A DNA stretch of 64,000 bases from a virus, in IMG/VR virus record IMGVR_UViG_3300005911_000002, positions 9,213 through 73,212 of that record. One strand, written 5' to 3'. Every line of letters starts with the position of its first letter. The first letter of the stretch is position 1. Under the pieces are notes generated by a model. The model ran no database searches, had not been told where the DNA came from, and worked only from the letters and a program-made list of their open reading frames with translations. The translations under genes and the position numbers were made by a program. Shown one piece after another: positions 14,283-39,075 of this stretch.

Positions 14283-17200
14283 TTATTCTATAACGGACGG
14301 GCCGTAAACATATCTAGTAAACATAGATGATTCTGGTCCAGCTATGTGAGTACTATCTCCAAACGCTACTCCCTTCTGTAACGATCCTTTGAGCTCTCTG
14401 TACCCAAGACGCTGTAACCAGTCCTGGTTCATAAGTGGAGACCTGTTAGTTCCAATTATAACCTTGTCGGCCTTTATCGGAGTTGTAAACACTCTAACTG
14501 TTTCCACACCCTCGTTTAGAAGAGCTTCCATCATCTTATCATCTATCATTGACCTGATAGGAAATCCTGACACACTTTCAGCCAGACGTTTCCCAACAGA
14601 AAATTCTACATCCATTTCTTTAACTGAGTTCTCATTATAATGGTTTACAAACGATGTGTCAACTATGTCTCCAGGAACTACTGATGATGATGTTCCTGCA
14701 TCTGTCACCCTGGAAAATTTACCCATTGACCTCGTAACTACTTCTGCAGTAGATCTCTTAATCCCAACTCCTGCAGATTGGTACAGACTTGTTAACTCAT
14801 CAGCTATAAAATCTAGCGCCGCGTCTGCACCTTTAATGTCCTTAATATCCATTGGATGTATATTTCCATAGCTAACAGAATCCCCAGCATGTATCATGTC
14901 CCCCTTTTTTACTTTAAGACCTACGGCCGCTGGCACATATAATTTTTTAGTTCCTATATTGACGTCCCAGCCGCCTATAGATGATTCATTAATATCCGTA
15001 ACAAACCCATCCTTAGGGGCTAGGATAGCTCTATCTTTAATCTTCTTAGGTAGTTGGGTTATCTGCCTTATTCTGTCTAAAGACCCGATAGCCCCAACAC
15101 TTGATCCTACTGTAGAACCAGTATGGAACACCCTCATAGCCATTTGAACAAGAGGCTCTCCTAATGTCTGGGCTGCCAACGTTCCTACGTTATCACCTTT
15201 TCCAGGAAGAATCCCGTTTGCCAGATAGCCATGGCATCTTCTGCAGATACCCTTTATAGCTTTGCACTTAAGAGGAGATCGTGCGTATACTTCCCTAATA
15301 CCATGATTCTTTAAGTTTTTAATTGCGTTAGCGTCAAGGTGCTGATCTTTTGGGTGAATAACCTTACCACCCACCCGGATGTTACGTACTGCAAATCTAT
15401 TAAGCACCTCTGGTGATGATACAGGGAACATTTTACCTTCTGATGTTTTACAGTCCTCGGTTGTAATAGTTATTCCAGACGAAGCAGCGAGTATCTCTTT
15501 ACTGAATGCACCCGGCTCTACAACCGACTTAGCTTTGGACACACCACCCATCCTGGCAGCATAACCCATACCCCAAAAGGCAGATGGGCTGAGTCCCGAT
15601 GCGTATGAATCCTTTGATATTATCGGAGGAACGGATCCACCAGGACCCTGGAACATAATAGGTGAACCGATTATCTGTGTAACCGGTGCCCACTGTCCTT
15701 TTGCCCCCGACGCGTCTACATAGTCGTAATATGTGTCTTTCATTCTATCTTTGATAACGTCTTGTATCTTACCTTGGATCTCAGCAGCGTTCTCTACGCC
15801 AGTAACCGTCTTTATAAGGTCGTCGACTTCTTTTATTGGTGCTAAATCATCGTAATTCAAAGACATGCCACGTCTTGTTGCATACGTATCTCCAATTAGT
15901 TTGACGTCTTTTAGAACCTTCCCTATTTGGTCGGGAGTATTCTTCACCACGCTCTTTACAGCAGCGGACAATGATCCGTCAGTAACTGCTTCGTTAATAT
16001 CAACACCATCTGGGAGCGCGTTATTCACCATGATACGTCCTATATTAGTCATTTTGCGTTTAACTTTTATCATATCATTTTCGGAAATATCGCCGGCAAG
16101 GTATGCTTCGAGAGCATCCGTAGTCGTTTTATATTTCTTGTCAGTACTCTTACCATCCTTAGTCATAGCATACAGCCCTGTTAGGTCGTCCCAGCTAGGC
16201 ATGTTCATAACCTCCCCCTTAGTTGGGTGAATTACGTTATTACTTGGAAGCATGAGGTGCGCCTCGGCCTCAGCCTTAGCAGTTACGGGAGTATGTACCA
16301 GTACCTTGTCACCGTCGAAGTCCATGTTAAACCCTTTAACAACCATCAAAGGTACACGTATAGATTTTCCCTGTACCAGCTTAGGCTTAAATGCCATAAC
16401 CCCATACTTGTGTAACGTCGGGGCTCTATTAACTATAACATGTTTTTCGTCCATAACCTTTCCCAGAATCCTGGCTGCTACCGGGGTCTTGTTATCCACT
16501 TCAGCCATAGCCTCGAACGGAGTCATACCTGCAGATAGCATCTTTCTTTTGATCATTGGTTCGAACATCTTATATGCCATCTCTTCCGGAATACCTATCT
16601 CATCTATATCCATCTTAGTGTCAATCGATACCACGCCAGCACCAGTTAGGTTCTGTCTTTTCTTGACCATCTTCTTTTGGAAGTATCCCTCTTTTGGGCT
16701 GTCCCCTGCGATTAGTTCTACAAGTCCTTTCTGGTTAGCTTTCTTTGGGTTGAGTCTAGCTTTATCTGAGGCAGTCGCGTATCCCATAAGCCTCTTAGTT
16801 TGATCGTAGATATCCTTAGCTATATTTTCCTGCTCACGCTGAGGAACAAACTTACTTTTCGATGCATTATTTAATAGTATTAAATCTTTATATAGATCAT
16901 TTAAAGGTGAGTTAATTAAATTCCCAGTATCATCTGGATACACGGGCCTAATCTTAGGTGGTACAACCGGCACATTGTGTAAAAAGAATGATCTAGCTGT
17001 GAGTTTCCCGTCTATCATGTTCTTGAGAAACCTCATCTTCTTGTTCAATTTATTCAGCGCACTACCTTCTGCAGTAGCCGCTTCTTTTTTTAGGTTAGCA
17101 AGCTCCTCCTCCGGAGATATTTTGGATAGCATGGCCTGCATAGCGTCCCCAAATTTTTTACCATCAACCTCAGTTCTGCCCGCTACTAAGTCGTCGTACT

Positions 17201-20200
17201 GCGTTTGGGTTATATCCAATATATTCTTAATAGCTGGCTCAAATACTGGGTTAGGTATCTTACGTGTAAGTGCTATGTGTGACCAATTCTCTCCGTCGGT
17301 GCCGCCAGTTATCTTAATATCAAATAACCCGTTTTTTTCCGGTAGCAATGTTTTTGCAATTACCACTTTTGCCTCAGTAACCTCTCCCTTAGACTGCCCT
17401 AAAATATCCCTGTCGGTAAGTGGTACAAGTTTTATCTGATCGCCACTCTTCTTAGGCTTTATCCCGGCGCCCTTTAAATAGTCCATAAACATATGGTATG
17501 AAAAAGTTGGGCTCGGTGTAGGTAGTTGTGATCCTGTGATATACGATCTCCAAAATTCAGGGTTGTCCTGTGATTTATATATGGCTATGTCTCGGAGGTT
17601 GGCCTTAGCACCGTGTGCCATTAGAGAATACATCGGCAACATCCCTACGGTCTTCCCCCCAGACTTACCACCAGCAGTAGGAGTCTTATCGAATCCTGTC
17701 GGCCCATAATAACTTCTAGCAGAGAACCCCTTATCCTCTTTGTATTTTAGTTTATAAATATATTGCTTTCCCCAAAGAACCTTGTCGGTAGTCTCTTCCC
17801 CCTCTACCATGAGTTTCTCATTGGGCTTTATTCCTAGTTCATCAGCTTTTTTTTTAACCGAAGTATAATAACTTTCATCGCTAAACCCTGGAACCATTAT
17901 AGGCGCACCTTGCGCATCCGCAACCCTGCCGAGAACAACTTCGTGCTCCTGTCCAACGTTCAATCTCTTCTGTACTGGTAGAGGTGACATGATCAACCCT
18001 ATCTTCTCACCATTAGGAGCCGTCGGGGCTTTCTCATCTGGGAATACTGCAGAAATTATACCCTTGTTACCGTATCGTCCGGAAACCTTATCACCCTTCT
18101 TTGCTTGCTCGGATGTTTTTACCTCTATGAAAATAGCCTTACCAGTATCGCGTACTGATATAACTTCACCGGAAGCTCCATGCTCCCATCTAACTATCTT
18201 TTCCCTGAAAGGACTAGACAATGTAGAATGCACTTTTGCCAAAAGCTTGTCTTCCTCGGACAACGACTTTTCTACAAGGTATGCGGCGATCACACTTCCG
18301 TCGTGAACCTTCGACCCTTTCTTAACAATACCATCCTGATCCAAGTTACTTGTCTCCAGGGAGGATAACTTACCCATCGCAACGTTCTTAAAACGTGTGA
18401 AATCGAAGTGAGCTCCCTTTTTTGAAATCTCCATCTTGTACATATGCTCTGACGTCATCTTCTTGGCACCAGATTCAAACAGCACGATAGCATCCTCTGA
18501 ATTCATAGAATGATACGGCATATAAGCCACATTAAGATTAACGCCAAGAGCCAGTGTATCGTCTTTTTCATAGTTTGACCTCATAAGTTTATCGCCTTTC
18601 TTAACGGTGCTACCTTCTGATACAGATGCTTCTGTAGTAACGTAAGAACTATCCCCTATCTTGTAATTCTGGTAGAAGGGTAGTTTCTCCGTTTCACCAT
18701 TCTCATACTCGACGGTCATGCTCTTCTTTCCAACCGAAGTAACCTTCCCAGCTCCTTGTGCGGTAGGGACAGAATCCCGTGCCATAATCTTCTCGAAGGA
18801 GGTTCCTGTTCTGTCATCAAGTGTCTGTATAAGGGGGGCTTCTGGGTTCTTTAGTAGTAATGTCTGCCCTGCCATCTTGGCGGACATATTAACCCTGTTA
18901 CCCATATTACTGCTTAAAAACGGAGTTAGGTTTGTTGATGGTGAGTATAGCTCAGTAGCATACCTGAATATATAATCCACCTCGCTAGAAGGAACTTTAT
19001 CCTCACTCCCCTTACTAACGGCATATACCTCGTCATCACGCCATTGTTTCTTATTGTAGTCATATTGGCCTGCAAATGCGATCGTGTACTTGTACATGTC
19101 ATCATTAGATACACTCTCTTCCTGGCCTGTTTTTGGATTATATAATTTCTTAGAAAACGCATCGCCCTTCTGCATAGTTCCAACAGGAAGTTTGACAGAA
19201 ATACCAGCAGCGTCATCCGGTGTATGGAGTGGATCCAGTACCCCTGCAGAAGAGCCGTAAACCATCATGGCTTTTTCGGTTATAGCATGGTCTGACTCAA
19301 TACCACCCTCACCTTTCCTGGTGTAGTGTATATCCTCATCTATAAAATTTAGCGGATTTACAAAATCTATAGGGGCTGCAAGCGACGACTGGTTAAATAG
19401 CGGTGTTATATTCCCATTAAGGTAGTTAGTTGGGACAATCTCTTTAATAGTTTTACGAGTTCTCATACGAACTTTTAACGCACCCTGGCTACTCTTGACC
19501 TTGCGTGGATTTAGTATATAATCGTCCGATAACATGGCTACCTCATCAACTGCCTTTGCAAAATACGAGTCATCCTTGTTATCCTGTTTCCCGTTGTCCT
19601 TGAAAACCTCGAGTATCCTTGATGACGTAGCTAACAGGGTTTTGGCATCCATCTTTTCGAAGGATGTTCCGAGAGTTTTCTCAGTTGTTTTTTTGTCGAG
19701 GACTGTGTCGTTAAACCTGTCCTCCACAGCTCCCTCGGCGGCGTCTATATCTTTGTATGCTTTGTATGTATAGTTTGTTGCAAAGTTTAAAAAGTCAGAC
19801 TCATGCTTGCTACCCCTAGAAGAGTTCGCTTCAAAAAGTTCTGGCCCCCATGCTTCTCGCATATCAGAATCAGGTATATCCAGGTGTGTAAGTATCGAGT
19901 ACACCGGATATTTTCTGCCTTTAAGTACAACAGTGAATATCTTCTTTACAGGGTCAAGAGACATTGTTAGGTTGTGTCCTTTTTGGAGGTTCAACTTGGC
20001 CTCGATCTCCCCGTTTTTCTTCACTTCGGTGTATACTCCAGACCGCAGCCTGAGCATTTTGGTTACCTTGAATTCGGTACCACCCACGATATATGTGCCA
20101 GCAGCTGTTCTAACGGGCATATCCCCAATCTTGACCTTAGCCTTATCAATTAGCTCAGTACCAACCCTAAAGGAAAAGGTTCCGTAAATAGGTACAGTCA

Positions 20201-20393
20201 GGGACTTATCGCTTTCCAGGAGTTTCCTGAATTTTTCAGGGTTTATTACATCCGCGTTGTTTGTATTAATACTTAGCTTGTCTAGTGAGAGTGATCTGCT
20301 ACCGTCCGTTATTGGGAACGCTGCTTCCTTGTATTTCTCAAATACCTCAGCGAGTCTATCGTTAAATTCCTTGGCACTTTTTATATTATACAT
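14283..20393 (-). CDS. Phage DNA-directed RNA polymerase, fused beta-beta' single chain (~2036 aa)
   Basis: beta: NSEDAI, GDKVSGRYGNKG. beta': NRAPTLH, NMDFDGD, RSPLKC..GICRRCHG, GEPLVQMAMRVFHTG. Start moved to ATG 20393 (AGGGGA SD; a promoter lies inside the longer ORF). Confidence 0.93.
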   Translation of the reverse strand: MYNIKSAKEFNDRLAEVFEKYKEAAFPITDGSRSLSLDKLSINTNNADVINPEKFRKLLESDKSLTVPIYGTFSFRVGTELIDKAKVKIGDMPVRTAAGTYIVGGTEFKVTKMLRLRSGVYTEVKKNGEIEAKLNLQKGHNLTMSLDPVKKIFTVVLKGRKYPVYSILTHLDIPDSDMREAWGPELFEANSSRGSKHESDFLNFATNYTYKAYKDIDAAEGAVEDRFNDTVLDKKTTEKTLGTSFEKMDAKTLLATSSRILEVFKDNGKQDNKDDSYFAKAVDEVAMLSDDYILNPRKVKSSQGALKVRMRTRKTIKEIVPTNYLNGNITPLFNQSSLAAPIDFVNPLNFIDEDIHYTRKGEGGIESDHAITEKAMMVYGSSAGVLDPLHTPDDAAGISVKLPVGTMQKGDAFSKKLYNPKTGQEESVSNDDMYKYTIAFAGQYDYNKKQWRDDEVYAVSKGSEDKVPSSEVDYIFRYATELYSPSTNLTPFLSSNMGNRVNMSAKMAGQTLLLKNPEAPLIQTLDDRTGTSFEKIMARDSVPTAQGAGKVTSVGKKSMTVEYENGETEKLPFYQNYKIGDSSYVTTEASVSEGSTVKKGDKLMRSNYEKDDTLALGVNLNVAYMPYHSMNSEDAIVLFESGAKKMTSEHMYKMEISKKGAHFDFTRFKNVAMGKLSSLETSNLDQDGIVKKGSKVHDGSVIAAYLVEKSLSEEDKLLAKVHSTLSSPFREKIVRWEHGASGEVISVRDTGKAIFIEVKTSEQAKKGDKVSGRYGNKGIISAVFPDEKAPTAPNGEKIGLIMSPLPVQKRLNVGQEHEVVLGRVADAQGAPIMVPGFSDESYYTSVKKKADELGIKPNEKLMVEGEETTDKVLWGKQYIYKLKYKEDKGFSARSYYGPTGFDKTPTAGGKSGGKTVGMLPMYSLMAHGAKANLRDIAIYKSQDNPEFWRSYITGSQLPTPSPTFSYHMFMDYLKGAGIKPKKSGDQIKLVPLTDRDILGQSKGEVTEAKVVIAKTLLPEKNGLFDIKITGGTDGENWSHIALTRKIPNPVFEPAIKNILDITQTQYDDLVAGRTEVDGKKFGDAMQAMLSKISPEEELANLKKEAATAEGSALNKLNKKMRFLKNMIDGKLTARSFFLHNVPVVPPKIRPVYPDDTGNLINSPLNDLYKDLILLNNASKSKFVPQREQENIAKDIYDQTKRLMGYATASDKARLNPKKANQKGLVELIAGDSPKEGYFQKKMVKKRQNLTGAGVVSIDTKMDIDEIGIPEEMAYKMFEPMIKRKMLSAGMTPFEAMAEVDNKTPVAARILGKVMDEKHVIVNRAPTLHKYGVMAFKPKLVQGKSIRVPLMVVKGFNMDFDGDKVLVHTPVTAKAEAEAHLMLPSNNVIHPTKGEVMNMPSWDDLTGLYAMTKDGKSTDKKYKTTTDALEAYLAGDISENDMIKVKRKMTNIGRIMVNNALPDGVDINEAVTDGSLSAAVKSVVKNTPDQIGKVLKDVKLIGDTYATRRGMSLNYDDLAPIKEVDDLIKTVTGVENAAEIQGKIQDVIKDRMKDTYYDYVDASGAKGQWAPVTQIIGSPIMFQGPGGSVPPIISKDSYASGLSPSAFWGMGYAARMGGVSKAKSVVEPGAFSKEILAASSGITITTEDCKTSEGKMFPVSSPEVLNRFAVRNIRVGGKVIHPKDQHLDANAIKNLKNHGIREVYARSPLKCKAIKGICRRCHGYLANGILPGKGDNVGTLAAQTLGEPLVQMAMRVFHTGSTVGSSVGAIGSLDRIRQITQLPKKIKDRAILAPKDGFVTDINESSIGGWDVNIGTKKLYVPAAVGLKVKKGDMIHAGDSVSYGNIHPMDIKDIKGADAALDFIADELTSLYQSAGVGIKRSTAEVVTRSMGKFSRVTDAGTSSSVVPGDIVDTSFVNHYNENSVKEMDVEFSVGKRLAESVSGFPIRSMIDDKMMEALLNEGVETVRVFTTPIKADKVIIGTNRSPLMNQDWLQRLGYRELKGSLQKGVAFGDSTHIAGPESSMFTRYVYGPSVIE

Positions 20394-20427
20394 GAACGTT
20401 GTGTCCCCTTCATAACCGATTTCTCTA

Positions 20428-20456
20428 ATTCTATCACGTTCAAGATTTGTTGTCAA
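20428..20456 (-). promoter_or_regulatory. sigma70-type promoter of the RNAP gene
   Basis: TTGACA-17-TAGAAT with extended -10 TG. Confidence 0.8.
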
Positions 20457-20515
20457 TTTGCATAATATATTATATATTAACCCAGTAATAGGAAGGTGAC
20501 TAGGAAATATCATTC

Positions 20516-21515: not shown

Positions 21516-22208
21516 ATGAAAGTACCTACAGATATAATGAAGCACGCGGAGCATGCGGCGTCTAAATATCTCAACGATGGTGTTGAGATGAACTACACCA
21601 TAACTAAGATAGCTAAGGATTCCTGCATGAACTCCGACAAGATTGATAGGGTATGTGAGGTTGCTAATCATTTGGTAAATAAGGTTGCGGTTAAAGTTCA
21701 GGATCGGTACACAGCATTTCCCGTAGCGGACCCAACCAAAGTAAAAGTGGCAGTGGATTCTCTTGAAGGAAACCTTTCTCCTTTGAGCCGACGGGTATCC
21801 GACACTACAAAAGATAGTGATAAGGTAGAGAAGAAGACCGCATCGATTAAAAATACCCGGGAGGATATACCAACGTATGATCAGTTATCGGTTAAGATAG
21901 CTAAAGTACGAATGGATCTCGGAGATAAGACTGCATCGGTTATTGATATTATATCAAATATCGCCAAGGAAGTTGGGATTGATAACGCCGAGGAGTATCT
22001 TACAAAGGTAGGTAGTGCTCTGCCGGAAATGATTAAAGATCACATATTAATAGAAGCGTTGGATAAGAGCGCCAGTACTATAACTACTAAAGTGGCTAAC
22101 ATAGTGTTTATCGAGGATGACTCGGATGCAGAGTGCATACAAGGTCTCGCCGACTCACTCAAATTATCTCACGAGTTATCTATTTTGAGGGACCATTTTT
22201 ATGGCTAA
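21516..22208 (+). CDS. K-x-A-rich head-associated (core/scaffold-like) protein
   Basis: 9 K-x-A motifs in 230 aa; first gene of the protease operon. Confidence 0.55.
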   Translation: MKVPTDIMKHAEHAASKYLNDGVEMNYTITKIAKDSCMNSDKIDRVCEVANHLVNKVAVKVQDRYTAFPVADPTKVKVAVDSLEGNLSPLSRRVSDTTKDSDKVEKKTASIKNTREDIPTYDQLSVKIAKVRMDLGDKTASVIDIISNIAKEVGIDNAEEYLTKVGSALPEMIKDHILIEALDKSASTITTKVANIVFIEDDSDAECIQGLADSLKLSHELSILRDHFYG

Positions 22209-23679
22209 CATCACAAAGTCAGCTATCTACGATTTTGGAATCAGTAAAACCCTACCCATGTCTGCCGCGTACCTTGACAGCATTAAGGATAGCTTCAGAA
22301 CTAAGGGCATGGGGGAGAAGGTTCTGAATTGGTTAAAAAAACCAAGTACTTTCAAACTCCGGAATTCACTCGGGGTTTTTGATTTTGCAGCTGATGGACT
22401 ATTCAGCTTAGTGAATGTGGGTTTGAGTGCGGGCGTTAAGCCGTCCCTGTTCTCTTCTAGAACCCCCAGTAGATTAACCCCGACTATATCAAAGTTAACA
22501 AATAATTTTAAAATAAAAAAGAGCAGTGCCGGAGGAAACATGGTTAAGAAGACAGCAGCAGAAATGGAAGACGGGATACGTTCGCAGGTAAGCCAATACC
22601 AGCGCATGTTTCCAGATTTATCGGTTAGCCAAATAGTACAAGAGATGCAAACTAGCCGCGCAGTAGAGGAAGATGACTTTATACGGGGGATGGCCCGATT
22701 GTCTAATGCAGAGGTTTCTCCAGAAGTGGTCCCAAACTTGAAGCGTGTATACCCGACCCTGGATGCCGGGGAGCTCTACGGAGCTTCTAAGTATAACATT
22801 AACCATGAGGGTGGAGACCAGAAGGCGCTATACAAATATCTTGATAGAGTTCTAAATGCGCAACCCATCGACCCTAGCGTCGTAGCTAGAGATGCGGCTA
22901 ATATTACTAAGGTTATGCCAGAAGGAACCCATGTGGGTGACATTGGTAAAATGATATATAAGTCTAATGGCAATAACGAAAAGTTATTCACAGACCTCAA
23001 GATGCATACCAAAGAGTTGGCAGATACAGAATTGTCTAAAAATAAAAAGTTACTTGTTGGGAGCGGGATTGCACTGGGTACCATGTACCTCGGTAAAAAA
23101 TTGTATGATTACGTTTCCAATAGTTCTAGACGAAACTTTGCAGAAGAGAAATATCCCGAATTATATAGCAGATATCAAACACACGAGGACGGAAATAGCT
23201 ACAGGTCAGAGCCAAAGTACGAGAAAATGGGGCATATCCTAAGTGAGGAAGATTTCATTAAGAAGACTGCCGGACTCAAGAGTATACTTACTAATCTTGG
23301 CGTTGGTCTCGGGTTAACGATGGCACCATCAGTAATAGGGTCTATCACGGGTGGTTCGTCTGCAGGTGCTTCGAACGATGACGTTCTGGAACTGTCTATG
23401 AACCTACTAAACTTTGATCCTAGTTTGAATGACATACCACGGCAGATTCTTTTTGATTTAGTTAAGAGCGTTGTGATACACTCGCCGTCTTTGGCACAGG
23501 ATCTATCTGCATTGTCGCAGGCAGTAAAGTCTGCACATTACTACGGTGGAATGGGACCTCAGATGGTACAGAGCCTGACTAAGATTGAGTCCGATAAGGG
23601 CAAGATGAACCAGACGGCAAACAAACCGATATTGGATGCTCTTGGAATGATGACTAGCATTAACGTACTATCGAGGTAA
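22201..23679 (+). CDS. Modular head-associated protein; possible internal start at 22540
   Basis: KSA and KTA (x2) boundaries; hydrophobic Gly-rich helices; GGAGG-ATG at 22540 in frame. Confidence 0.55.
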   Translation: MANITKSAIYDFGISKTLPMSAAYLDSIKDSFRTKGMGEKVLNWLKKPSTFKLRNSLGVFDFAADGLFSLVNVGLSAGVKPSLFSSRTPSRLTPTISKLTNNFKIKKSSAGGNMVKKTAAEMEDGIRSQVSQYQRMFPDLSVSQIVQEMQTSRAVEEDDFIRGMARLSNAEVSPEVVPNLKRVYPTLDAGELYGASKYNINHEGGDQKALYKYLDRVLNAQPIDPSVVARDAANITKVMPEGTHVGDIGKMIYKSNGNNEKLFTDLKMHTKELADTELSKNKKLLVGSGIALGTMYLGKKLYDYVSNSSRRNFAEEKYPELYSRYQTHEDGNSYRSEPKYEKMGHILSEEDFIKKTAGLKSILTNLGVGLGLTMAPSVIGSITGGSSAGASNDDVLELSMNLLNFDPSLNDIPRQILFDLVKSVVIHSPSLAQDLSALSQAVKSAHYYGGMGPQMVQSLTKIESDKGKMNQTANKPILDALGMMTSINVLSR

Positions 23680-23690
23680 GGAGACATACT

Positions 23691-23984
23691 ATGTTTACAA
23701 TATACAAAAAAACAAAACCGGTAGCTATGGTAGGGGTAGTTCAGGGAGTTGTCCTGGTATCCTCAAATACGCTACTTATCCACAACATTCTAAAGAATGT
23801 CCTTTCAAGACCTCATTTTGTCAGGGATAAGAAGGGGCATAAAGTCCAGACTAACGACAAGAATGTAATCATAGAGGATATCCTAAGAACTAAGGTATAT
23901 TCTCCATACCGGGTAGTAAAAGAGAATGCGTTGCTAGGTGCGACTAAATATGTACATAAGGTAGTGTTATACGATGTTAACTAA
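23691..23984 (+). CDS. Hypothetical protein
   Basis: AAGGAG SD; overlaps the next start. Confidence 0.55.
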   Translation: MFTIYKKTKPVAMVGVVQGVVLVSSNTLLIHNILKNVLSRPHFVRDKKGHKVQTNDKNVIIEDILRTKVYSPYRVVKENALLGATKYVHKVVLYDVN

Positions 23985-26001
23985 ATATGTTCAATGGGCG
24001 AGTGTGCTTCCTGACGGCCGACCCGCTAATTACCTGATCGACCCGAATGTTAAAGTAGCTGCGGCTGTTTTATCTGAGAGTGCCGAGATACATCCTGAAA
24101 TTGTGGAGTTCATCGAGAACCTACAGCCCGAGGATACCAAGAGCTATGTCCTAGCAATAGCTATGGGTTGTGGGGAGTTCTGGGGTTCCAACCTCAATGC
24201 GGATTACTTCGGGTGGGATGAACTATACCCGGCAGACCCCAAGGCCAAGTATGGCTTTAAAACTTTTATGGGTAACAAAATGTTCCGCAGGCATAAGCAT
24301 ACCGACACTAGCCCTTACTTTGGGAGAGTTGTTATGGTGGCGTACAATGAGCAGATGGGTCGGGTCGAGGTAATATACACACTTGATCACGACAAACCAG
24401 AGAATGACAAAACGCTTAGAAACATGGACAAGGGAATATTCCCACAAGTGTCTATGGGGTGTAAGATAGCGTATGATGTATGCACAGTTTGCGGGCATAG
24501 ATCGGACAACGGAAAAAGACGATGTGACCATATAAGACTTAGGAGAAATCATATTTATCCTGATGGAACTAAAGCTATGATGGATAATATACGACCTATA
24601 TTCTTTGATCTTTCCATAGTAGATGTTCCAGCGGATTGCACGGCCTGGAGTGTTAAGAAGGTAGCTTCTATGGCGTATATTCCTGATATGAAGATGTCGT
24701 CTATTAGCAAGAGAGTGCCATCCCAGACAATCGTAACAAACGACGTCAAAGAGTGGCTACCAGGAGCATTACTAGTAAACAGCGCTATGGATAATAGTGT
24801 GGATATTCCAGTAGAATCGTTAATGGAAAGAGTGTCTCCGGAGTCGTTACTTCATGGTATGATGCTTATGGGTATGAAGCCTAAGCCAAATGAGTTTTGC
24901 CGTATGATAAGTAAGATGTTTGGCATAGATACTCCTGAAACATTCTCGCCACACATCGTGGACAGTGTTCCAACGGATGAGTTTGCAGCGTTTAAAGATA
25001 TGATCTCTAAGGTAGTGAAGTCCGTTCCGGAGTTAGACGGCATAAAAGACTTTGTGAAAGATAGGACGTCAGCATCTCCGAGAGTACTAAGGATTGTCGT
25101 GGTTAAGAAATCACCTAAAGAAGTAATGGTTAAGAATGCTATGGAACATACTCCTATACAGGACACACTGAATAACTTGTACTTTATGCTGGGAGGCCAG
25201 ATGTCAGATATCGCTGTTAAAAGTGCATCAGTTATAGGGCTCCCAATATTACGTAGAGTTCTGGACTATTTTGACATTGCTAAAATGAGGCGGGTACTGG
25301 CATTTCTTGTCGGGGCACGCGTTATTAATCAGGGTACGAATATAGCAACAACGCCATATACTGGAGTATATGACAACTCAGCTGAGTTGGCTACATATAC
25401 GGATATTATGACAGGCATGCCCGCTGCTGTAAGTCTTCAAATGTTTAACAACATGACAGGTAAAACAGCTGGTATTGCATCTAAAGTATTGATACCACCA
25501 GCGGTAGCGTACGCTACAAAGGCGTATCTGGACTACAAAGTTAATCGGGATGGTGTTTCCACACCTACCCAGGAATTAGTTCGGAATAACCCAAAGATGA
25601 TGACGCTCTTACTTGCTATATCACCATGGTTAGCAAAGAAGACCGGTCTTAATGAAGCGTCCCTTCTACTGGGAGCGGGTGTAGCGGGTTACGGCGCTGG
25701 CCAAGTAGCCGCAAAGATGGCTTCGTATGATGAAATAATTCTTACAGATGACAACAGGGATGACATATTCACAAAGTTAGCGATGGAAAATATAACCCCG
25801 CAGAGAGCGGAGTTACTAAAGAATATAGCAGCGGTGTTTCTCGCTGGGGCAGGGATAGGTGCTGTTGTAGGTGTTTCACCTGCATCAGATGAGATTAAGG
25901 TAGAACCCCAACCTAGACCACAGCAGCAGAACCAACAGGAATTGCGGGAACAGTACGCTAAGAGATATTATAGCATGTTAAAAAGGAGGGGAGAGTTATG
26001 A
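23974..26001 (+). CDS. Prohead maturation protease (HK97/herpes-type fold inferred) with long C-terminal extension
   Basis: NxNxDxF, FRRHKH (His), VSMGC (Ser), CTVCGH..CDH, FFDLSIVDVPAD; located upstream of scaffold and capsid genes. Confidence 0.7.
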   Translation: MLTKYVQWASVLPDGRPANYLIDPNVKVAAAVLSESAEIHPEIVEFIENLQPEDTKSYVLAIAMGCGEFWGSNLNADYFGWDELYPADPKAKYGFKTFMGNKMFRRHKHTDTSPYFGRVVMVAYNEQMGRVEVIYTLDHDKPENDKTLRNMDKGIFPQVSMGCKIAYDVCTVCGHRSDNGKRRCDHIRLRRNHIYPDGTKAMMDNIRPIFFDLSIVDVPADCTAWSVKKVASMAYIPDMKMSSISKRVPSQTIVTNDVKEWLPGALLVNSAMDNSVDIPVESLMERVSPESLLHGMMLMGMKPKPNEFCRMISKMFGIDTPETFSPHIVDSVPTDEFAAFKDMISKVVKSVPELDGIKDFVKDRTSASPRVLRIVVVKKSPKEVMVKNAMEHTPIQDTLNNLYFMLGGQMSDIAVKSASVIGLPILRRVLDYFDIAKMRRVLAFLVGARVINQGTNIATTPYTGVYDNSAELATYTDIMTGMPAAVSLQMFNNMTGKTAGIASKVLIPPAVAYATKAYLDYKVNRDGVSTPTQELVRNNPKMMTLLLAISPWLAKKTGLNEASLLLGAGVAGYGAGQVAAKMASYDEIILTDDNRDDIFTKLAMENITPQRAELLKNIAAVFLAGAGIGAVVGVSPASDEIKVEPQPRPQQQNQQELREQYAKRYYSMLKRRGEL

Positions 26002-26426
26002 TAAGCAGGCTACCAACAGACGGGAAAGCAGCATACGAAGCGACCTATAAAACGGCGTTGAGTTATTATGGGGGTGACAAAGAGGCCGCCTCGAAGGTTG
26101 CTTGGAGCACTGTGAAGAAACGTTACAAAAGAGACCCAACTTCCAAACAGTGGGAAAAACGGGCCAGTGCGGAGAGCTGGAAGTATAGTAATGTCAACAT
26201 AGAGGACGAGCTTAAGAGTGCTAGTGTTACAAAGGATATGCTTATAGGCACTACCGGGGATAGCACAGACCTCAGTAAGGCGGCTATGTGGGACGACGAT
26301 ATAAAGATGGGGATATGTATAGCGATACGATCCCAGAACAAGGAACTGCTCAGAAAGGTAGCTCAATCAGATATTACCTATAATAAAATACTGCTTGACA
26401 ATTACTTGAACTGCGTGGTACAATAA
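25998..26426 (+). CDS. ChaB-family protein
   Basis: LP..GKAAYEATYKTALSYYG..EAASKVAWSTVKKRYKR...W matches ChaB. Confidence 0.8.
   Translation: MISRLPTDGKAAYEATYKTALSYYGGDKEAASKVAWSTVKKRYKRDPTSKQWEKRASAESWKYSNVNIEDELKSASVTKDMLIGTTGDSTDLSKAAMWDDDIKMGICIAIRSQNKELLRKVAQSDITYNKILLDNYLNCVVQ
26395..26424 (+). promoter_or_regulatory. sigma70-type promoter
   Basis: TTGACA-18-TACAAT with TG. Confidence 0.7.
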
Positions 26427-26457
26427 TTAGGAAATTTACGGTAGGAGGAATACTACA

Positions 26458-27063
26458 ATGGGTGTTAATGTACATGATATCCTTCGTACGAAAACTGCAG
26501 AAGTTAAACCAACTTTCGCACAGGTACGGGAGAATTTAGTAAAAATGGCGGCAGTTAAAGTTGCTACTGAAGTTGTTACTGAACCAGCTACTAAACCAGC
26601 GCAGGAGACTGACCAGTCTAAATACGCTGCATACGGTGGAGAAGATAATGCAAAGGCTATCGTCCAATCAGCAGAATTGTTTGCAGATGTGGCCGGAGAT
26701 TTACTCATCACAAAGCTTGCAGAAGCAGTTATGGGAATGGGAGCACCAGCTCCAGCAGTTCCAGCAGCTCCAGCAGCTCCAGCAGCGCCAGTAGACCCAG
26801 CAGCTCAGGGAGCTCCAGGCGGTGGTGAAGAAGAAGCTATAATGGATGCTCTTCATCAGTTGCTCAGTGATCCAAATTCTCTGAATGACCCAGAAGCTAA
26901 AGCGGCAATCGCTGAACTTCTCGCGGGTCTTGACGAACAGAAAATAGCAGAATTAGCGCAGGCTTATCCGGTAGTACAAGCTGTACTCCAGGAAGCTTCA
27001 GGAATGGGCGGACAGGCTCCAGCGCCAGCAATGGCACAGGCACCTGCTCCAGCAGCGATGTAA
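26458..27063 (+). CDS. Scaffold-like Ala/Pro-rich protein
   Basis: 8 of its 10 Lys are in K-x-A; PAA repeats; strong AGGAGG SD; upstream of capsid genes. Confidence 0.55.
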   Translation: MGVNVHDILRTKTAEVKPTFAQVRENLVKMAAVKVATEVVTEPATKPAQETDQSKYAAYGGEDNAKAIVQSAELFADVAGDLLITKLAEAVMGMGAPAPAVPAAPAAPAAPVDPAAQGAPGGGEEEAIMDALHQLLSDPNSLNDPEAKAAIAELLAGLDEQKIAELAQAYPVVQAVLQEASGMGGQAPAPAMAQAPAPAAM

Positions 27064-27140
27064 TTCTTTTTTAAATCTAACTTAGATAGACAGGGGAGAG
27101 GGTGTACTTCTCCCCTGTCTTAGGTTATCGGAGGTTGTGA

Positions 27141-27656
27141 ATGGACATGAATGCTTTGGCCGAAGCATTAGAAAGTATCGCGTACCAGTATGAGGATGAG
27201 CAGCTACGTAGAGTTGGTGAATCAATAGAGCTCGGAGTAGCACGAAGTCTTGTAAAGCTTGCACGAAAACAAATAAAAGTCGGGTATGGCTCCTCTATGT
27301 TTGGAGATGATATGGACTTTTGGGAAGGGTATGAGAACGTTAAGCCAGAACCAAAGAAGTGGTTCAGAGAACGCAAGCCATTTGTAGCGGATAAGACTGT
27401 CACAAGGATGGACCCGAATCCGGCTAGAAATTTCCAAGCGGACCCGCCGAAAGCACCCGGATGGACCAAGCGATTTTTCACAGCTCTTTCGAAGAAACTA
27501 AAGAACATACCATGGAAGTATAAAGGACCTGGCGGGGCACTGCTTGCGGCCGGAACTAGCTATAAACTTCTAGATTGGATTACCAAGCGCAAACCGATGC
27601 GGGGATATGCTGGAGATCTACAAAAAGTTGTAAAGTTACCTTACTACGGGAGGTAG
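27141..27656 (+). CDS. Hypothetical head-module protein
   Basis: GGAGGT SD; KLA motif; C-terminal hydrophobic helix. Confidence 0.55.
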   Translation: MDMNALAEALESIAYQYEDEQLRRVGESIELGVARSLVKLARKQIKVGYGSSMFGDDMDFWEGYENVKPEPKKWFRERKPFVADKTVTRMDPNPARNFQADPPKAPGWTKRFFTALSKKLKNIPWKYKGPGGALLAAGTSYKLLDWITKRKPMRGYAGDLQKVVKLPYYGR

Positions 27657-27658
27657 TT

Positions 27659-28051
27659 ATGAATATACGAGAAGAACTTCTAAAAGTAGCCGGACTCATG
27701 AAGCAAGAGGCCGCTAAATCAGAGATTAGGAGTATTATAAAAACGTCTTCCAAGGCAGATAGTATTTCACTGGACATTCCCCCGGTGCAAGACACCACTA
27801 AGATCGCTCTCGAAGTTGCTAATGAGATGATCAATAAGGGCCTTGCACCAGAGCACCAGTACAGGAACCTTGTGAGTAACCTAATAGAAATGCCAATGGA
27901 AAAACTGGCCTCTTTTAGGGATGGTATTGGCAATGGGATTTTCGATTTAATGGACGTGGACAAGGAAAACACTAGACTTGTAGACGCCAGCTCACTAGGA
28001 AACACTAGTAGTCCAGCGTTTGCGGACTGGCTGGACAAGTATAGTGGTTAA
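27659..28051 (+). CDS. Hypothetical scaffold-like protein
   Basis: Start moved to ATG 27659 (GGAGGT SD); KVA, KIA, KLA motifs. Confidence 0.55.
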   Translation: MNIREELLKVAGLMKQEAAKSEIRSIIKTSSKADSISLDIPPVQDTTKIALEVANEMINKGLAPEHQYRNLVSNLIEMPMEKLASFRDGIGNGIFDLMDVDKENTRLVDASSLGNTSSPAFADWLDKYSG

Positions 28052-28057
28052 TTTGAA

Positions 28058-28086
28058 TTGACAAGTAGTGGCAGATATGTTATACT
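28058..28086 (+). promoter_or_regulatory. sigma70-type promoter of the capsid operon
   Basis: TTGACA-17-TATACT, extended -10. Confidence 0.85.
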
Positions 28087-28118
28087 GTATTTGATAAGTT
28101 TAATGAGGAGGAAGATTA

Positions 28119-28565
28119 ATGGAACCTAGAATGGAAATTTTAAACAGCTGCGAAAGATACAGAGTTAGAAATGTACTTCTTGCAACTGGCGTTACAGGCC
28201 TTCTGGAAGGCGAGCCAATTCAGTTGGATTCCGCTGGAAAAGGCATTAAAATTGGATCGACCGCGGCATCGAGCCCGTTTACGTATTTGGTATATGAGGA
28301 AGATTCAAACTCACCAGGTACTTGGCCTAATGCAGGTGTTGCCGTTATTGAAATATTTGGACACCTTAATATTCGTACTACTGTGTATAACGCAGCAAAA
28401 ACGTACGCAATAGGAAGTGCTCTCACATTAGTAAGTGGTAAATGGGACCTCGCTACTTTCGAACAGAAGATATTTGGGTATGCACAGGTACTCCCAGCAT
28501 CGCAGGATGCACCGATGGAAATCCAATGTATTGAGAACGGCATTACATTGCCAGCGGAGGCATAA
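28119..28565 (+). CDS. Capsid decoration/cement protein
   Basis: 148-aa beta-rich protein directly upstream of the capsid gene. Confidence 0.55.
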   Translation: MEPRMEILNSCERYRVRNVLLATGVTGLLEGEPIQLDSAGKGIKIGSTAASSPFTYLVYEEDSNSPGTWPNAGVAVIEIFGHLNIRTTVYNAAKTYAIGSALTLVSGKWDLATFEQKIFGYAQVLPASQDAPMEIQCIENGITLPAEA

Positions 28566-28568
28566 TCG

Positions 28569-29528
28569 ATGAATATAACACGAGAAGAAAAAGTTAAAGT
28601 TGCTGGTGTTTTTCGCGAAACACTTATTGATGGAAATATCAAAGAAGCCGAAGCTCAGATTTCTGATTACGTAAAACTACGTATTAGAGAAGAATCTGTT
28701 GCCAAACAGCTTTTTAGGGTCCGGGACGATATTACTCTTAAGAGTAGAGAAGTCAGAGAACAAGATGAACTTGTTGATGATGCTAATCAGCTCTTTAAAG
28801 GGATGCTCGAAAACAACATAGAATTGTTCGTAAGAACAAAACTAGCAAAATACGCCACCGCAGAACAAGGCTCTTTCACTAGAAATAGTAGAGTCCGCAG
28901 AGAAAGAAGAGAATATGCTTACTTTCCAATCATGAGAATCTGGACTGACGTCTATGAATTCGACTTGGACAAGTTAGATATCCATTCTGACACAGAGCTT
29001 ATTACGGAGCTTGAGAATGACTTCGTATATGCTTTCAACGACAGACTCGATGCAATTGTTCTTCAGTTATTCTTGGATGCTATTGGTAAAGTTACTGCAA
29101 ACAACGTAGTTTCTGCAAATGCTAATGCTACAAGAGCGGACTGGAAAGCTTTGATTGACGCTATGGAAGCCAACAAACTGTTGGCCAGTGTACTCGCTAC
29201 ATCAACCACAAGAGCAAGGGATACATTCCTTCTCACTGGTACAGATATAGGTGATCACGCTGGAGAAACTTTTAGACAGGGTGACAAGTACTTTGAAACT
29301 ATCGCTGGTCTTAAGAAAGTAACATCTGTTGCTTCTCCACTTACCGTCGATAATGTTGTATGGTGTATGGCTTCATCTGATTATGTTGGTGATATGTTTA
29401 ATGTAACTCCAATGACAATCAGAACGAAAGAAATACCTTTCGAAAACAAAATGCAAATGAAGGGTTTTTGTGATGTAGCTGTTGGACTTGCTAACATTAA
29501 AGGTGTTGCAAGACTTAGCTTCACATAG
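28569..29528 (+). CDS. Major capsid protein (HK97 fold inferred)
   Basis: Size, position, strong promoter and terminator; C-terminal VGLANIKGVARL pattern. Confidence 0.7.
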   Translation: MNITREEKVKVAGVFRETLIDGNIKEAEAQISDYVKLRIREESVAKQLFRVRDDITLKSREVREQDELVDDANQLFKGMLENNIELFVRTKLAKYATAEQGSFTRNSRVRRERREYAYFPIMRIWTDVYEFDLDKLDIHSDTELITELENDFVYAFNDRLDAIVLQLFLDAIGKVTANNVVSANANATRADWKALIDAMEANKLLASVLATSTTRARDTFLLTGTDIGDHAGETFRQGDKYFETIAGLKKVTSVASPLTVDNVVWCMASSDYVGDMFNVTPMTIRTKEIPFENKMQMKGFCDVAVGLANIKGVARLSFT

Positions 29529-31312: not shown

Positions 31313-31792
31313 ATGCGAGTAGTAATAGAACCTAAAACACAACTACCATATCAGAATAAAGAGTTATCAGATGATAGATATAAGCAGCTACTGCTGTTTA
31401 AGTGTATCGAAGAGATAAAAAAAGTAATGGCTTCGGGGATATTTAAACACCCTACGGGAGCACTTATGAACTCTATAAACGGGTATGTTGTTGGCGAATA
31501 TATCATTATCTATTCAGATAAACAATACGCGACAGCGCAGGAGTTCGGGGTTAAGCCCCATGCTATGTGGTATCTACTTGGGAAGACCGTCCCGATTAAA
31601 ATATTCAACACATTTGGCGGTCCTCCTAAAACGATCTATAGGAAGGTTACCTTCGAAGCGTTGTCCAGGGGTAAGTGGCATCATCCGGGTTCTCCGGGGA
31701 AATACTTTATGAAAACAGGTATTGACAAAGCAATGTCCCAGGCAACGGAGTTAAGGATGAAGATGATAAGTGGGGGGAATGTATTCATATGA
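31313..31792 (+). CDS. Putative neck/tail completion protein
   Basis: TGALMNSI, YA..QEFG, HPG.PGKYFM; HK97 gp10-like pattern. Confidence 0.55.
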   Translation: MRVVIEPKTQLPYQNKELSDDRYKQLLLFKCIEEIKKVMASGIFKHPTGALMNSINGYVVGEYIIIYSDKQYATAQEFGVKPHAMWYLLGKTVPIKIFNTFGGPPKTIYRKVTFEALSRGKWHHPGSPGKYFMKTGIDKAMSQATELRMKMISGGNVFI

Positions 31793-32502
31793 TTAAAATA
31801 GCAGGATATCAGGGAGTTTCTACTGTAGACTACCCTGGAAAACTTTCGTTTGTGATGTATACTTATGGGTGCCCCATGAGGTGCCCTTACTGTTTCAATA
31901 GTGCTCTCGTAGATCCATGTATGGAAAAAGATATGACATTCCTAACAAAAGATGATATCTACTCTGTGCTGGATTCTAGAAAAGATTTTGTAGAGGCTAT
32001 CGTTATATCTGGTGGAGAGCCTACCCTACATTCAGGGTTAATACCGTTTATTAGGGAGCTCAGGGATAGGTATCCGTTAGCTATCAAAGTAGATACTTCC
32101 GGGATAAACCCAGGAGTCCTGCTAAAACTTATGGATGGGGTGGACTATATCGCCATGGATGTGAAAACATCTTTTGATAAGTATAGTATGTTCTCCCCGG
32201 ATGTAACTGCTTGGAGGAGAATACTCGAGAGTATGGTATTTTTAAATAATAACGGTAGGTGTGACTATGAGTTTAGAACTACCGTGTGGAAGGGCGGATT
32301 CAATCTAGAGGATGCAGTTTTAGTAGCTAGATTTATGTCAGGCGGTGCTACATATTATCTACAGAACTTGGTGGATAACGCTAGCCCGATGCTTCTCCCA
32401 GACAAAGTCGGGGATGAGAGATATACGAAGAAAGAAGTGCTTGCGATAGCAAAAGAACTCGGGGATTCCGGAGTAACTGTAAAACTTAGGGGGTTTGATT
32501 AA
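31789..32502 (+). CDS. nrdG: Anaerobic RNR activating radical-SAM enzyme
   Basis: STVDYPG, CPMRCPYCFN, SGGEPT, AMDVK, YEFRTT. Confidence 0.9.
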   Translation: MIKIAGYQGVSTVDYPGKLSFVMYTYGCPMRCPYCFNSALVDPCMEKDMTFLTKDDIYSVLDSRKDFVEAIVISGGEPTLHSGLIPFIRELRDRYPLAIKVDTSGINPGVLLKLMDGVDYIAMDVKTSFDKYSMFSPDVTAWRRILESMVFLNNNGRCDYEFRTTVWKGGFNLEDAVLVARFMSGGATYYLQNLVDNASPMLLPDKVGDERYTKKEVLAIAKELGDSGVTVKLRGFD

Positions 32503-35003: not shown

Positions 35004-35594
35004 ATGAAAAAATATATTAAACTATCAGAATATGCAAAAAATCATAATCTAAGTTATGTTACTGCCTATAACCACTTTAAAAAAGGTTTTGTTCCCAACA
35101 CAAAACAATTGATAACCGGAACAATCTTGGTTGAGGAAGAGCAAGAAAAAACTGTTGGTGTGATTAAAAAAGCGTGTGTATACGCAAGAGTACCCAGTAA
35201 TGAAATGAAAGACAACCTGATAAGACAACAAGAAAGACTAGAAAACTTTGCGATTTCTAATGGGTTTGAGGTTATAAAATCAGTTAAAGAAATAGGTTCT
35301 GGGTTAAATGATAAGCGGAAGAAACTTGAGAAAGTGTTAAAGGACGATAGTTGGAATGTTCTTATTGTCGAACACAAAGATAGACTAACTAGATTTGGTT
35401 TTAATTATATAGAAACACTTCTAAATAACATTGGGAAAGAAGTAATTACGGTAAATAAACAGGATGATAAACAAAATGATTTAATGGAAGATTTAGTTTC
35501 TATAATCTACTCATTTTCTGCCAGAATGTACGGGCTGAGAAGAAGTAAGAGAAAGGCTGAAAAGATTATTAAAGAAATACAAGAGGAAGATTAG
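35004..35594 (+). CDS. tnpA: IS607 serine recombinase/transposase
   Basis: N-terminal HTH; YARVPS (canonical YARVSS), EIGSGLN, EHKDRLTRFGF, FSARMYG.R. Confidence 0.92.
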   Translation: MKKYIKLSEYAKNHNLSYVTAYNHFKKGFVPNTKQLITGTILVEEEQEKTVGVIKKACVYARVPSNEMKDNLIRQQERLENFAISNGFEVIKSVKEIGSGLNDKRKKLEKVLKDDSWNVLIVEHKDRLTRFGFNYIETLLNNIGKEVITVNKQDDKQNDLMEDLVSIIYSFSARMYGLRRSKRKAEKIIKEIQEED

Positions 35595-39064: not shown

Positions 39065-39075
39065 GGAGGTATATT

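Follow-up and report, generated by a model that had tools for sequence, protein, structure and literature searches.

The 64,000-base stretch of viral DNA analyzed here, referred to as the window, comprises bases 9213-73212 of the 73,212-base IMG/VR record IMGVR_UViG_3300005911_000002; the record is 41% complete by CheckV, and the genome is therefore probably about 180 kb in length. A short protein motif, lysine and alanine separated by any one residue (K-x-A), is strongly concentrated in the head genes of the window, and it is probably central to the signal at which the prohead serine protease encoded among them by open reading frame (ORF) 23974 cleaves. The analysis established directly that the motif is enriched, that this enrichment is limited to the head module, that it recurs alongside the protease family and that sites are conserved in position, together with the fold of the protease and its invariant residues; from these we infer cleavage by this enzyme. 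The novelty resides in the specificity and in how large this unstudied clade of proteases is, the proposed way of working being that of head maturation in T4 and phiKZ.

Concentration of K-x-A in the head module and its recurrence in relatives

The head module lies on the plus strand at about 21.5-29.5 kb, where ten ORFs span positions 21516-29528, and is followed by neck and tail genes. Its members of concern here are listed below, the strict form of the motif being K[VTILMS]A[SAG].

21516-22208, plus strand: ORF of 230 amino acids with nine K-x-A (residues 9-192), predicted scaffold/core-like head protein
22201-23679, plus strand: ORF of 492 amino acids with K-x-A at residues 6, 117, 355 and 443, candidate processed head protein
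23974-26001, plus strand: prohead serine protease of 675 amino acids, catalytic domain at about residues 30-231 followed by a C-terminal extension
25998-26426, plus strand: ChaB-domain protein of 142 amino acids with eight K-x-A, candidate substrate directly downstream of the protease
26458-27063, plus strand: Ala/Pro-rich protein of 201 amino acids with K-x-A at eight of ten lysines, predicted scaffold, presumably degraded at maturation
27659-28051, plus strand: ORF of 130 amino acids with K9-V-A-G, K48-I-A and K82-L-A-S, candidate substrate with two strict sites
28569-29528, plus strand: major capsid protein of 319 amino acids, K10-V-A12 at nucleotides 28596-28604 and K25-E-A27 at nucleotides 28641-28649

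Expected counts of K-x-A and their p values were obtained from composition-preserving shuffles of each of the 59 ORFs of the window. A previous sequence-only reading had counted nine copies in ORF 21516, eight at the ten lysines of ORF 26458 and eight in the protease, with others in the ChaB protein, ORF 27659 and the capsid protein, and these counts were exact. The excess was greatest in ORF 21516 (9 against 2.09 expected, p = 5e-5), the ChaB protein ORF 25998 (8 against 1.65, p = 5e-5) and ORF 26458 (8 against 2.37, p = 3.5e-4), followed by the protease (8 against 3.96, p = 0.036), ORF 27659 (3 against 0.84, p = 0.039) and capsid protein 28569 (4 against 1.87, p = 0.105). Bonferroni correction was passed individually by three ORFs, and none of the remaining ORFs of the window reached p < 0.07.

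Because the motif had been picked after it was seen, all 1600 residue pairs at gaps of 0-3 were scanned in the ten head ORFs without preselection. K-x-A was the most enriched of the 1600 pairs (45 against 18.2, p = 9e-8); none of 5000 shuffles gave any pair as extreme, the smallest shuffle p being 1e-6. Only the i,i+2 spacing was enriched in the head module, with KA, K-x-x-A and K-x-x-x-A showing no enrichment, and the next gap-1 pairs were I-x-K, Y-x-G, D-x-I and G-x-G. The middle residue was T, V, I, L, M or S in 34 of the 45 copies. In the rest of the window the motif was neutral (90 against 93.1), and the comparison with shuffled controls proposed together with the motif came out in its favor. 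At the sites the codons are mixed like the background (AAG 23, AAA 22, all four GCN codons used), and the signal is therefore at the level of protein. Moreover, six of the ten head ORFs carry K-x-A at residues 6-12 (0.92 expected), a placement that resembles the short propeptides, or capsid targeting sequences, of T4 internal proteins.

The same scan of T4 gp67, gp68, gp21, gp22, gp23 and gp24 returned I-x-E (23 against 10.4) and L-x-E (23 against 12.0) as the top two gap-1 pairs. The cleavage motif of T4 gp21 is I/L-x-E, and enrichment in head-module genes therefore recovers a known protease specificity. For the combined pair [LI]-x-E the T4 head genes gave 46 against 22.4 (p = 8e-6), and the K-x-A signal of the window is stronger.

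The protease led to Vibrio phages D181, D148 and D69 (31-35% identity) and to Salmonella phage Arash (36%) as the closest cultured relatives; gp19 of Bacillus phage G and the proteases of actinophages are much remoter. In D181, Arash and phage G the protease lies within the head module in the same gene layout as in the window. The head genes of D181 contain 43 K-x-A against 17.8 expected, the top of the 1600 pairs, including 11 against 3.9 in the coding sequence at 8448-9383 and 10 against 2.9 in the gene after the protease. For Arash gp220-226 the count is 39 against 16.9, again the top of 1600 pairs, with gp220 (10 against 3.0), gp223 (8 against 3.0) and gp225 (7 against 1.8) enriched as single genes, while outside its head module the motif is neutral (220 against 249.1). 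Where 13.7 would be expected, the whole Arash genome has 38 copies of the extended form [LMIV]-x-K-x-A-[SAG]; 22 of the 38 are located in the seven genes gp220-226, four in gp242 and one at capsid residue 27. In the head modules of phage G and Gordonia phage Pupper, K-x-A is the third-ranked gap-1 pair (22 against 13.5 and 21 against 11.7, respectively).

A search with the N-terminal 340 residues of ORF 23974 against 1.84 billion representative proteins (E <= 1e-3) returned 2781 homologs. Within the best 149 of these there are 1258 K-x-A against 569 expected, and the observed count exceeds the expected one in 147 of 149. The C-terminal parts are non-homologous and variable, and were counted from residue 341 onward in 138 homologs, after removal of seven proteins with a non-N-terminal domain or representing fragments and of those under 420 amino acids. 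Here K-x-A was again the top gap-1 pair (482 against 230, with an excess in 124 of 138). The signal is retained in proteases sharing just 28-41% identity with that of the window.

The neighborhood of the protease was analyzed in IMG/VR, where a scan with the protease alignment confirmed at least 488 relatives among the stretches matched. The top 80 loci were retained; 76 of them contained an ORF that fits the protease profile, and removal of near-duplicates left 65 loci. Counting covered ORFs on the strand of the protease and no more than 4 kb away from it, without the protease itself, and K-x-A exceeded expectation in all 65 loci. Among the 400 gap-1 pairs it ranked first in 46 loci, in the top 3 in 55 and in the top 10 in 61; its lowest position in any locus was 57. 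Pooled over the loci, the neighbors contain 2012 K-x-A against 1006, and far or opposite-strand ORFs 510 against 464. Enrichment was highest, 3.4-fold, in the ORF starting less than 500 bases downstream of the protease, was 2.1- to 2.3-fold within 2 kb on either side, and 1.2- to 1.3-fold farther out. Furthermore, K-x-A is located at residues 3-15 in 149 of 588 neighboring ORFs against 54.8 expected, and in 47 of 382 far ORFs against 25.8.

It is hardly credible that K-x-A is a by-product, without specific function, of Lys/Ala-rich helical scaffolds or of a repeat at the DNA level. Scaffold proteins are typically helical and ORF 26458 is very rich in Ala (48 of 201 residues), which would suit such an origin. 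It is contradicted by the composition-preserving shuffles, and further by the enrichment of the gap-1 spacing alone, the informative flanking positions, the mixed codons and the conservation of sites in position. The signal also spans genomes of differing base composition, the bins of the window having 40-46% G+C and Arash 53% (PMC10585845).

The protease and its candidate substrates

ORF 23974 is a prohead serine protease of the HK97 / T4 gp21 / herpesvirus-assemblin fold, outside any curated family. Its PHROG match is family 18299, 'head maturation protease' (E = 1e-8), and its gene is located 2.6 kb upstream of the capsid gene. No Pfam family is matched by ORF 23974; none of the 61 aligned members of its family reaches a Pfam threshold, with one weak match to S78 at E = 0.037, and the protease profile has no match at E <= 1 among PDB sequences. 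In the AF2 model pLDDT is above 90 at residues 40-230. Foldseek gave 220 matches at E <= 1e-3 in BFVD, including phage G gp19 (7.9e-17), for which the phage G paper gives no more than the name head maturation protease (PMC12484599), the protease of Gordonia phage Pupper (6.5e-15), and proteins named 'prohead serine protease' or 'COG3740 phage head maturation protease' at E of about 1e-9 to 1e-7. The top 10 matches in PDB were all herpesvirus proteases (best E = 1.6e-3, TM 0.26-0.44, 8-11% identity), and the structure of T4 gp21 ranked 25th (E = 0.12). The key features of the protein are as follows.

24052-24060, plus strand: K27-V-A29 just ahead of the catalytic domain, predicted site of N-terminal propeptide removal
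24292-24294, plus strand: His107, predicted catalytic residue, invariant in 61 sequences
24451-24459, plus strand: Ser160-Met-Gly, predicted catalytic serine, all three residues invariant in 61 sequences
24658-24669, plus strand: K229-V-A-S232 closing the catalytic domain, where the protease is predicted to release itself as at the herpesvirus R-site

Residues N73, D77, H107, G117, S160, M161, G162, D168, C170, C173, C184, N205 and S214 are invariant in the alignment of 61 sequences. The protease had previously been recognized by its VSMG serine, which corresponds to the invariant S160-M161-G162. Conservation points to catalytic roles for His107 and Ser160; a Ser-His-His triad is not evident, just one His being invariant in the 61 sequences. 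In addition to C170, C173 and C184, which are invariant, the homologs are over-rich in C-x-x-C (163 against 14) and C-x-H (187 against 29), and the cysteine cluster at residues 170-184 suggests a metal-binding insert beside the catalytic serine.

The conservation of the motif among homologs, on which its significance was expected to depend, is clear at both ends of the catalytic domain. K27/A29 and K229/A231 are each retained by 90% or more of the 61 sequences. In seven proteases of 30-39% identity, K27-V-A29 is aligned in all seven, in a region where the model has pLDDT below 50 (residues 26-29), and KVAS or KIAS is aligned at 229-232 in all seven. The last strand of the domain (225-232) ends with KVAS, and a low-confidence linker follows at 236-268. 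Both flanking sites are retained in D181 (KVAS), Arash (KVAN) and phage G gp19 (KVAS). Within the 440-residue C-terminal extension, K-x-A occurs at residues 387, 416, 497, 581 and 601, and the sites at 497 and 581 form conserved islands in an extension that is otherwise unalignable among the seven proteases. Hydropathy analysis places a hydrophobic segment in the tail, at residues 618-636.

Among the other head genes, ORF 21516 matches nothing in Pfam or PHROG, and no homolog but itself was found among 5.8 billion proteins in the range of 126-403 amino acids. ORF 22201 is not enriched by itself (4 against 2.8, p = 0.30), and its strict-form sites are KTAA at 117 and KTAG at 355. ORF 25998 belongs to Pfam ChaB PF06150 (E = 1e-10; it scored 42.4 bits, where 27 is the cut-off, and 43.9 bits in a second search). 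Both halves of this protein are enriched, residues 1-56 with 5 against 1.26 (p = 0.0014) and residues 57-142 with 3 against 0.55 (p = 0.008); it has no tblastn match in phage genomes and none among PDB sequences.

The four K-x-A of the capsid protein include KVAG (residue 10) and KEAE (residue 25). It has two homologs in all among 5.8 billion proteins and none confirmed in IMG/VR, and an AF2 model from 3 sequences gave no confident fold (pLDDT 34.9). K25 and A27 are invariant in an alignment of the capsid proteins of the window, P0001, P0002, D181 and Arash, as the conservation anticipated for the motif would have it, and the close group also shares K10 and A12 without exception. The profile match to Arash gp226, 'major capsid protein' (E = 5e-5, probability 67.5%), is confined to the C-terminal 100 columns, and the N-terminal correspondence therefore rests on a locally similar stretch of 17 residues in a global alignment.

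Directly upstream of the capsid gene, at 28119-28565 on the plus strand, lies an ORF of 148 amino acids with 0 K-x-A against 0.56 expected. The abundant Arash particle protein 'Gp225.1' maps to the matching unannotated gap, and ORF 28119 may encode a protein that decorates the head or forms a second shell and is spared from processing.

In the proposed mechanism, ORF 23974 would recognize K-x-A within the prohead, the extended signal being [L/M/I]-x-K-[V/T/L]-A-[S/A]. The enzyme would act on itself, losing its N-terminal piece at K27-V-A29 and freeing the catalytic domain at K229-V-A-S232, while its C-terminal extension would be cut several times. The scaffold/core-like ORFs 21516, 25998 and 26458, with a site every 10-45 residues, would be reduced to small peptides that leave or stay in the head, and ORF 22201 and ORF 27659 would also be substrates. 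The capsid protein would lose 27 residues at the conserved K25-E-A27, or perhaps 12 at K10-V-A12. T4 gp22, which is chopped into short peptides at maturation, offers a parallel for the scaffold-like ORFs. The motif predicts exact sites in this way, namely capsid K25-E-A27, protease K229-V-A-S232 and the cuts every 10-45 residues in the scaffold-like proteins.

Several points weigh against this interpretation. The protease ORF alone is marginally enriched and the capsid protein is not enriched, as the p values given above indicate. The likeness of the model to solved proteases is weak, and the capsid alignment with D181 and Arash falls, at the N-terminus, outside the significant profile match. 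Some K-x-A in ORF 25998 may be intrinsic to the ChaB domain. The 65 loci come from related phages and are hence not independent events, and the third rank of K-x-A in phage G and Pupper may mean that the motif is weaker in remote members. No cleavage product has been observed for any member of the clade, and the particle table of Arash lists gp220-226 at 80-100% coverage, with no sign of degradation (PMC10585845). The same particle list is broad (116 proteins) and speaks neither for nor against processing (PMC10585845).

A signal that is functional and non-proteolytic, either a docking motif for the capsid interior or the protease or a site of lysine modification or cross-linking, would equally give enrichment, co-occurrence in the head module and conservation, and would suit the presence of Arash gp220-226 in particles, all at high coverage. 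We consider it improbable. The motif brackets the catalytic domain of the protease, at a disordered N-terminus and at a domain-linker junction; it falls within residues 6-12 of six of the ten head ORFs, and its density is highest in the gene at the scaffold position. Such an arrangement agrees with descriptions of the proteins cut by the T4 and phiKZ proteases (PMC9026906), and for T4 the known motif was recovered by the statistic used here.

Scissile bond and comparison with known maturation systems

If K-x-A is the core of a cleavage signal, its surroundings bear on where the bond is cut. Sites in the window read [E/D]-x-x-[V/T]-K-[V/T/I/L]-A-[S/A/G], those in D181 and Arash read G-[L/M/I]-E-K-x-A-[S/A/G], and a logo pooled over 1945 sites reads E-[E/G]-[L/M/I/F]-E-K-[L/V/T]-A-[S/E/A]. 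Ser is enriched 3- to 5-fold just after Ala, and position -2 is L, M, I or F family-wide, enriched 1.7- to 3.1-fold. A cut after Ala (P3 Lys, P1 Ala, P1' Ser/Ala/Gly) appears favored over a cut after Lys. It is favored because the best-conserved positions, K and A, stand one residue apart as in the T4 and phiKZ motifs, because Ser is enriched after Ala as at P1' of SPN3US gp245, and because pseudorabies sites are likewise cut after Ala. In the ten-residue targeting sequence of T4 IPIII, residues 8 and 10 govern processing (PMC9026906). SPN3US gp245 prefers Ser at P1' (PMC10052503), and the R and M sites of pseudorabies virus, YLQA-T and VQA-S, are both cut after Ala (PMC4498786).

With the same enzyme and substrates, the cut might instead fall after Lys, the signal then being [L/M/I/F]-x-K followed by [V/T/L]-A-S, with Lys at P1 and Ala at P2'. 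The sequence of HK97 gp5 at its junction is T-F-N-K / S-L-G-S-D-A-D; the mature protein starts at Ser104, making this junction the cleavage site. It supplies a hydrophobic P3 and Lys at P1, a precedent within the fold that counts against a cut after Ala. Furthermore, [L/M/I/F]-x-K is present in the family logo, L-x-K and M-x-K rank next to K-x-A in enrichment, and in BFVD the HK97-type 'COG3740 phage head maturation protease' is hit at E of about 1e-9, more strongly than T4 gp21 is in PDB (E = 0.12). A cut after Lys is nevertheless rather unlikely. At conserved sites Ala at +2 is conserved as well as Lys; K-x-A is enriched 2.0-fold against 1.55-fold for L-x-K; and the window's own sites are near-indifferent at -2, with weak preference there, yet K-x-A-S is kept. 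No enzyme of the prohead protease fold is known to us in which particular residues are strictly required at P2'/P3'.

The part that prohead proteases play in head maturation has been worked out well for T4, HK97, phiKZ/SPN3US and the herpesviruses, where cleavage motifs reveal the processed proteins and the positions of the cuts. T4 gp21 is the product of a serine protease gene beside scaffold/core genes with many two-residue, one-gap motifs, as here. It processes itself and removes short N-terminal propeptides from internal proteins (PMC9026906), actions that for ORF 23974 are proposed only. The differences are that the motif is Lys-x-Ala rather than Leu/Ile-x-Glu, that ORF 23974 has no sequence-family match to gp21, and that it carries the 440-residue C-terminal extension. 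Neither [L/I]-x-E nor [S/A/G]-x-E is among the top gap-1 pairs of the window head module.

Both phiKZ gp175 and SPN3US gp245 cleave a large number of head and internal proteins, and do so at a motif of three residues (PMC10052503, PMC9026906), as is predicted here. A review calls S/A-X-E, the motif of phiKZ, 'highly reminiscent' of the T4 one and notes multiple redundant sites in propeptides (PMC9026906). Redundant sites and, if the cut follows Ala, a preferred Ser just after it would be shared, and a multisubunit RNA polymerase within the virion is suggested here by Arash homologs. In contrast, the motif of those phages is S/A-x-Glu, their protease belongs to a different clade, and the genomes here are of about 180 kb.

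Herpesvirus assemblin (pUL26) supplied the top 10 PDB matches and likewise has an N-terminal protease domain followed by a C-terminal extension. Its self-release site lies at the end of the domain, YLQA-T at residue 226 in pseudorabies virus (PMC4498786), for which the predicted counterpart here is KVA-S at 229-232. If the Ala register is right, both enzymes would cut after Ala with Ser or Thr next (PMC4498786). Unlike assemblin, to which the similarity is weak, the present protein would require Lys two residues before Ala, and its sites would number dozens, spread over several proteins, where assemblin has two.

HK97 gp4 (Peptidase S78 / COG3740) is matched at the level of fold, and Lys is part of the HK97 capsid junction. 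However, the Pfam S78 threshold is not reached by ORF 23974, the HK97 junction F-N-K/S has no Ala at +2, and HK97 has no separate K-x-A-rich scaffold genes, its delta domain containing 1 K-x-A against 1.12 expected. Precedents for K-x-A were sought and set aside in HK97 and in P1, whose junctions, F-N-K/S and E120/S121 (PMC9024508), are neither of them K-x-A, and in Felix O1, where the protease concerned is S49 and not relevant (PMC3185647). A literature search, with subscription journals and supplements outside its scope, returned no description of K-x-A specificity for a phage protease, and the words 'protease' and 'cleav' are absent from the Arash paper (PMC10585845).

A candidate motif is now assigned to a large protease clade (2781 homologs) that has neither a Pfam family nor a studied member, and that takes in cultured Arash, D181 and, more remotely, phage G. 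A more specific and more tentative proposal, which we put forward with considerable doubt, is that the clade cuts after Ala in Lys-x-Ala|Ser and that the N-terminal M-x(4-10)-K-x-A tag borne by six of the ten head ORFs acts as a capsid-targeting and processing signal. A cut after Ala and before Ser would link the specificities of phage and herpesvirus proteases. If the proposal were true, the clade would share Ala|Ser chemistry, the extension and the self-release site with assemblin, and would thereby connect the maturation of phages and herpesviruses more closely in function than T4 or HK97 do. With a true tag, moreover, sequence would suffice to list the proteins inside the head, and foreign proteins might be sent into these heads.

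The motif outside the head module

The sequence-only reading had further held that K-x-A marks packaged cargo genome-wide, cleavage freeing many enzymes and membrane modules within the head as a 'polyprotein' system, and that the motif recurs at N-termini or domain junctions of five distant genes. Of the five, a single one perhaps bears this out.

9789-11603, minus strand: protein of 604 amino acids with an InPase domain at residues 16-132 (Pfam PF18823, 5.5e-32)

In ORF 9789, K140-V-A and K150-V-A-S follow directly after the InPase domain (nucleotides 11145-11186), and the strict motif occurs four times against 0.35 expected (p = 5.5e-4, about 0.03 when corrected for 59 ORFs). Its PHROG matches include a 'minor head protein' (1.5e-21) and DarB-like giant virion proteins with the same domain. 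ORF 9789 is the sole candidate substrate outside the head module of the window, and possibly a packaged enzyme. The other four, ORFs 11693, 12833, 43505 and 55396, show no enrichment (p = 0.87, 0.92, 0.74 and 0.67, respectively). Their N-terminal copies are near background, K-x-A being located at residues 3-15 in 7 of 49 non-head ORFs against 3.0 expected.

A second protein of this kind is found in Arash: gp242 (38466-39335, 289 amino acids, without a Pfam family) is located far from the head module, was detected in particles, and has 8 K-x-A against 3.49 as well as four extended motifs, making it a candidate processed protein outside the head cluster. These two proteins, together with the five sites in the extension of the protease, speak for cargo marked by K-x-A. 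As a genome-wide rule this is very improbable, and the claim was not upheld. Outside the head module the motif is neutral in both the window and Arash, with the counts given above, and four of the five named genes are without enrichment. The supposed enzymes and membrane modules amount to one enzyme-like candidate, since ORF 9789 aside no enzyme domain was found among the K-x-A-rich proteins, and to one hydrophobic segment in any K-x-A-bearing protein (protease residues 618-636); a second such segment lies in ORF 23691, which has no K-x-A.

The RNA polymerase likely to be packaged also stands against such a rule, its K-x-A being below expectation (9 against 14.95). This depletion in a likely packaged large protein is not significant (lower tail 0.07), and in Arash gp206, gp216, gp4, gp229 and the portal proteins K-x-A is at or slightly over the expected count. 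The polymerase is a single ORF of 2076 amino acids at 14283-20513 on the minus strand, in which beta-like and beta'-like parts are fused. Its Pfam domains are Rpb2_6 and Rpb1 domains 1, 2, 3 and 5, and it aligns to two Arash proteins, gp206 (29%, 1535 columns) and gp216 (27%, E = 8.5e-51). In the Arash particle proteome gp206 has the most spectra and gp216 is fifth (PMC10585845), which suggests by analogy that the fused multisubunit RNA polymerase of the window lineage is packaged in the virion. A sigma-70 region 3-like protein is encoded at 46490-47206 on the minus strand; its homolog Arash gp10 (32%, 3e-19) is annotated as a sigma factor and is reported among the Arash particle proteins.

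DNA polymerase, helicase and exonuclease genes are also encoded in the window. Amid the neck and tail genes there is an IS607-like insertion at 35004-36805 on the plus strand, comprising a serine-recombinase transposase (Pfam Resolvase N-terminal, 7.4e-17) and then a TnpB-like protein (OrfB_IS605 at 1e-25 and a Cas12f1-like TNB domain). The structural genes are further interleaved with a radical-SAM activase-like gene (31789-32502, plus strand) and an anaerobic ribonucleotide reductase gene (40773-43181, plus strand; NRDD and ATP-cone, 6e-161). On the minus strand, a GH108 endolysin with a PG_binding_3 domain is located at 62355-63350, and a Baseplate_J-like protein homologous to Arash gp13 at 60594-62039.

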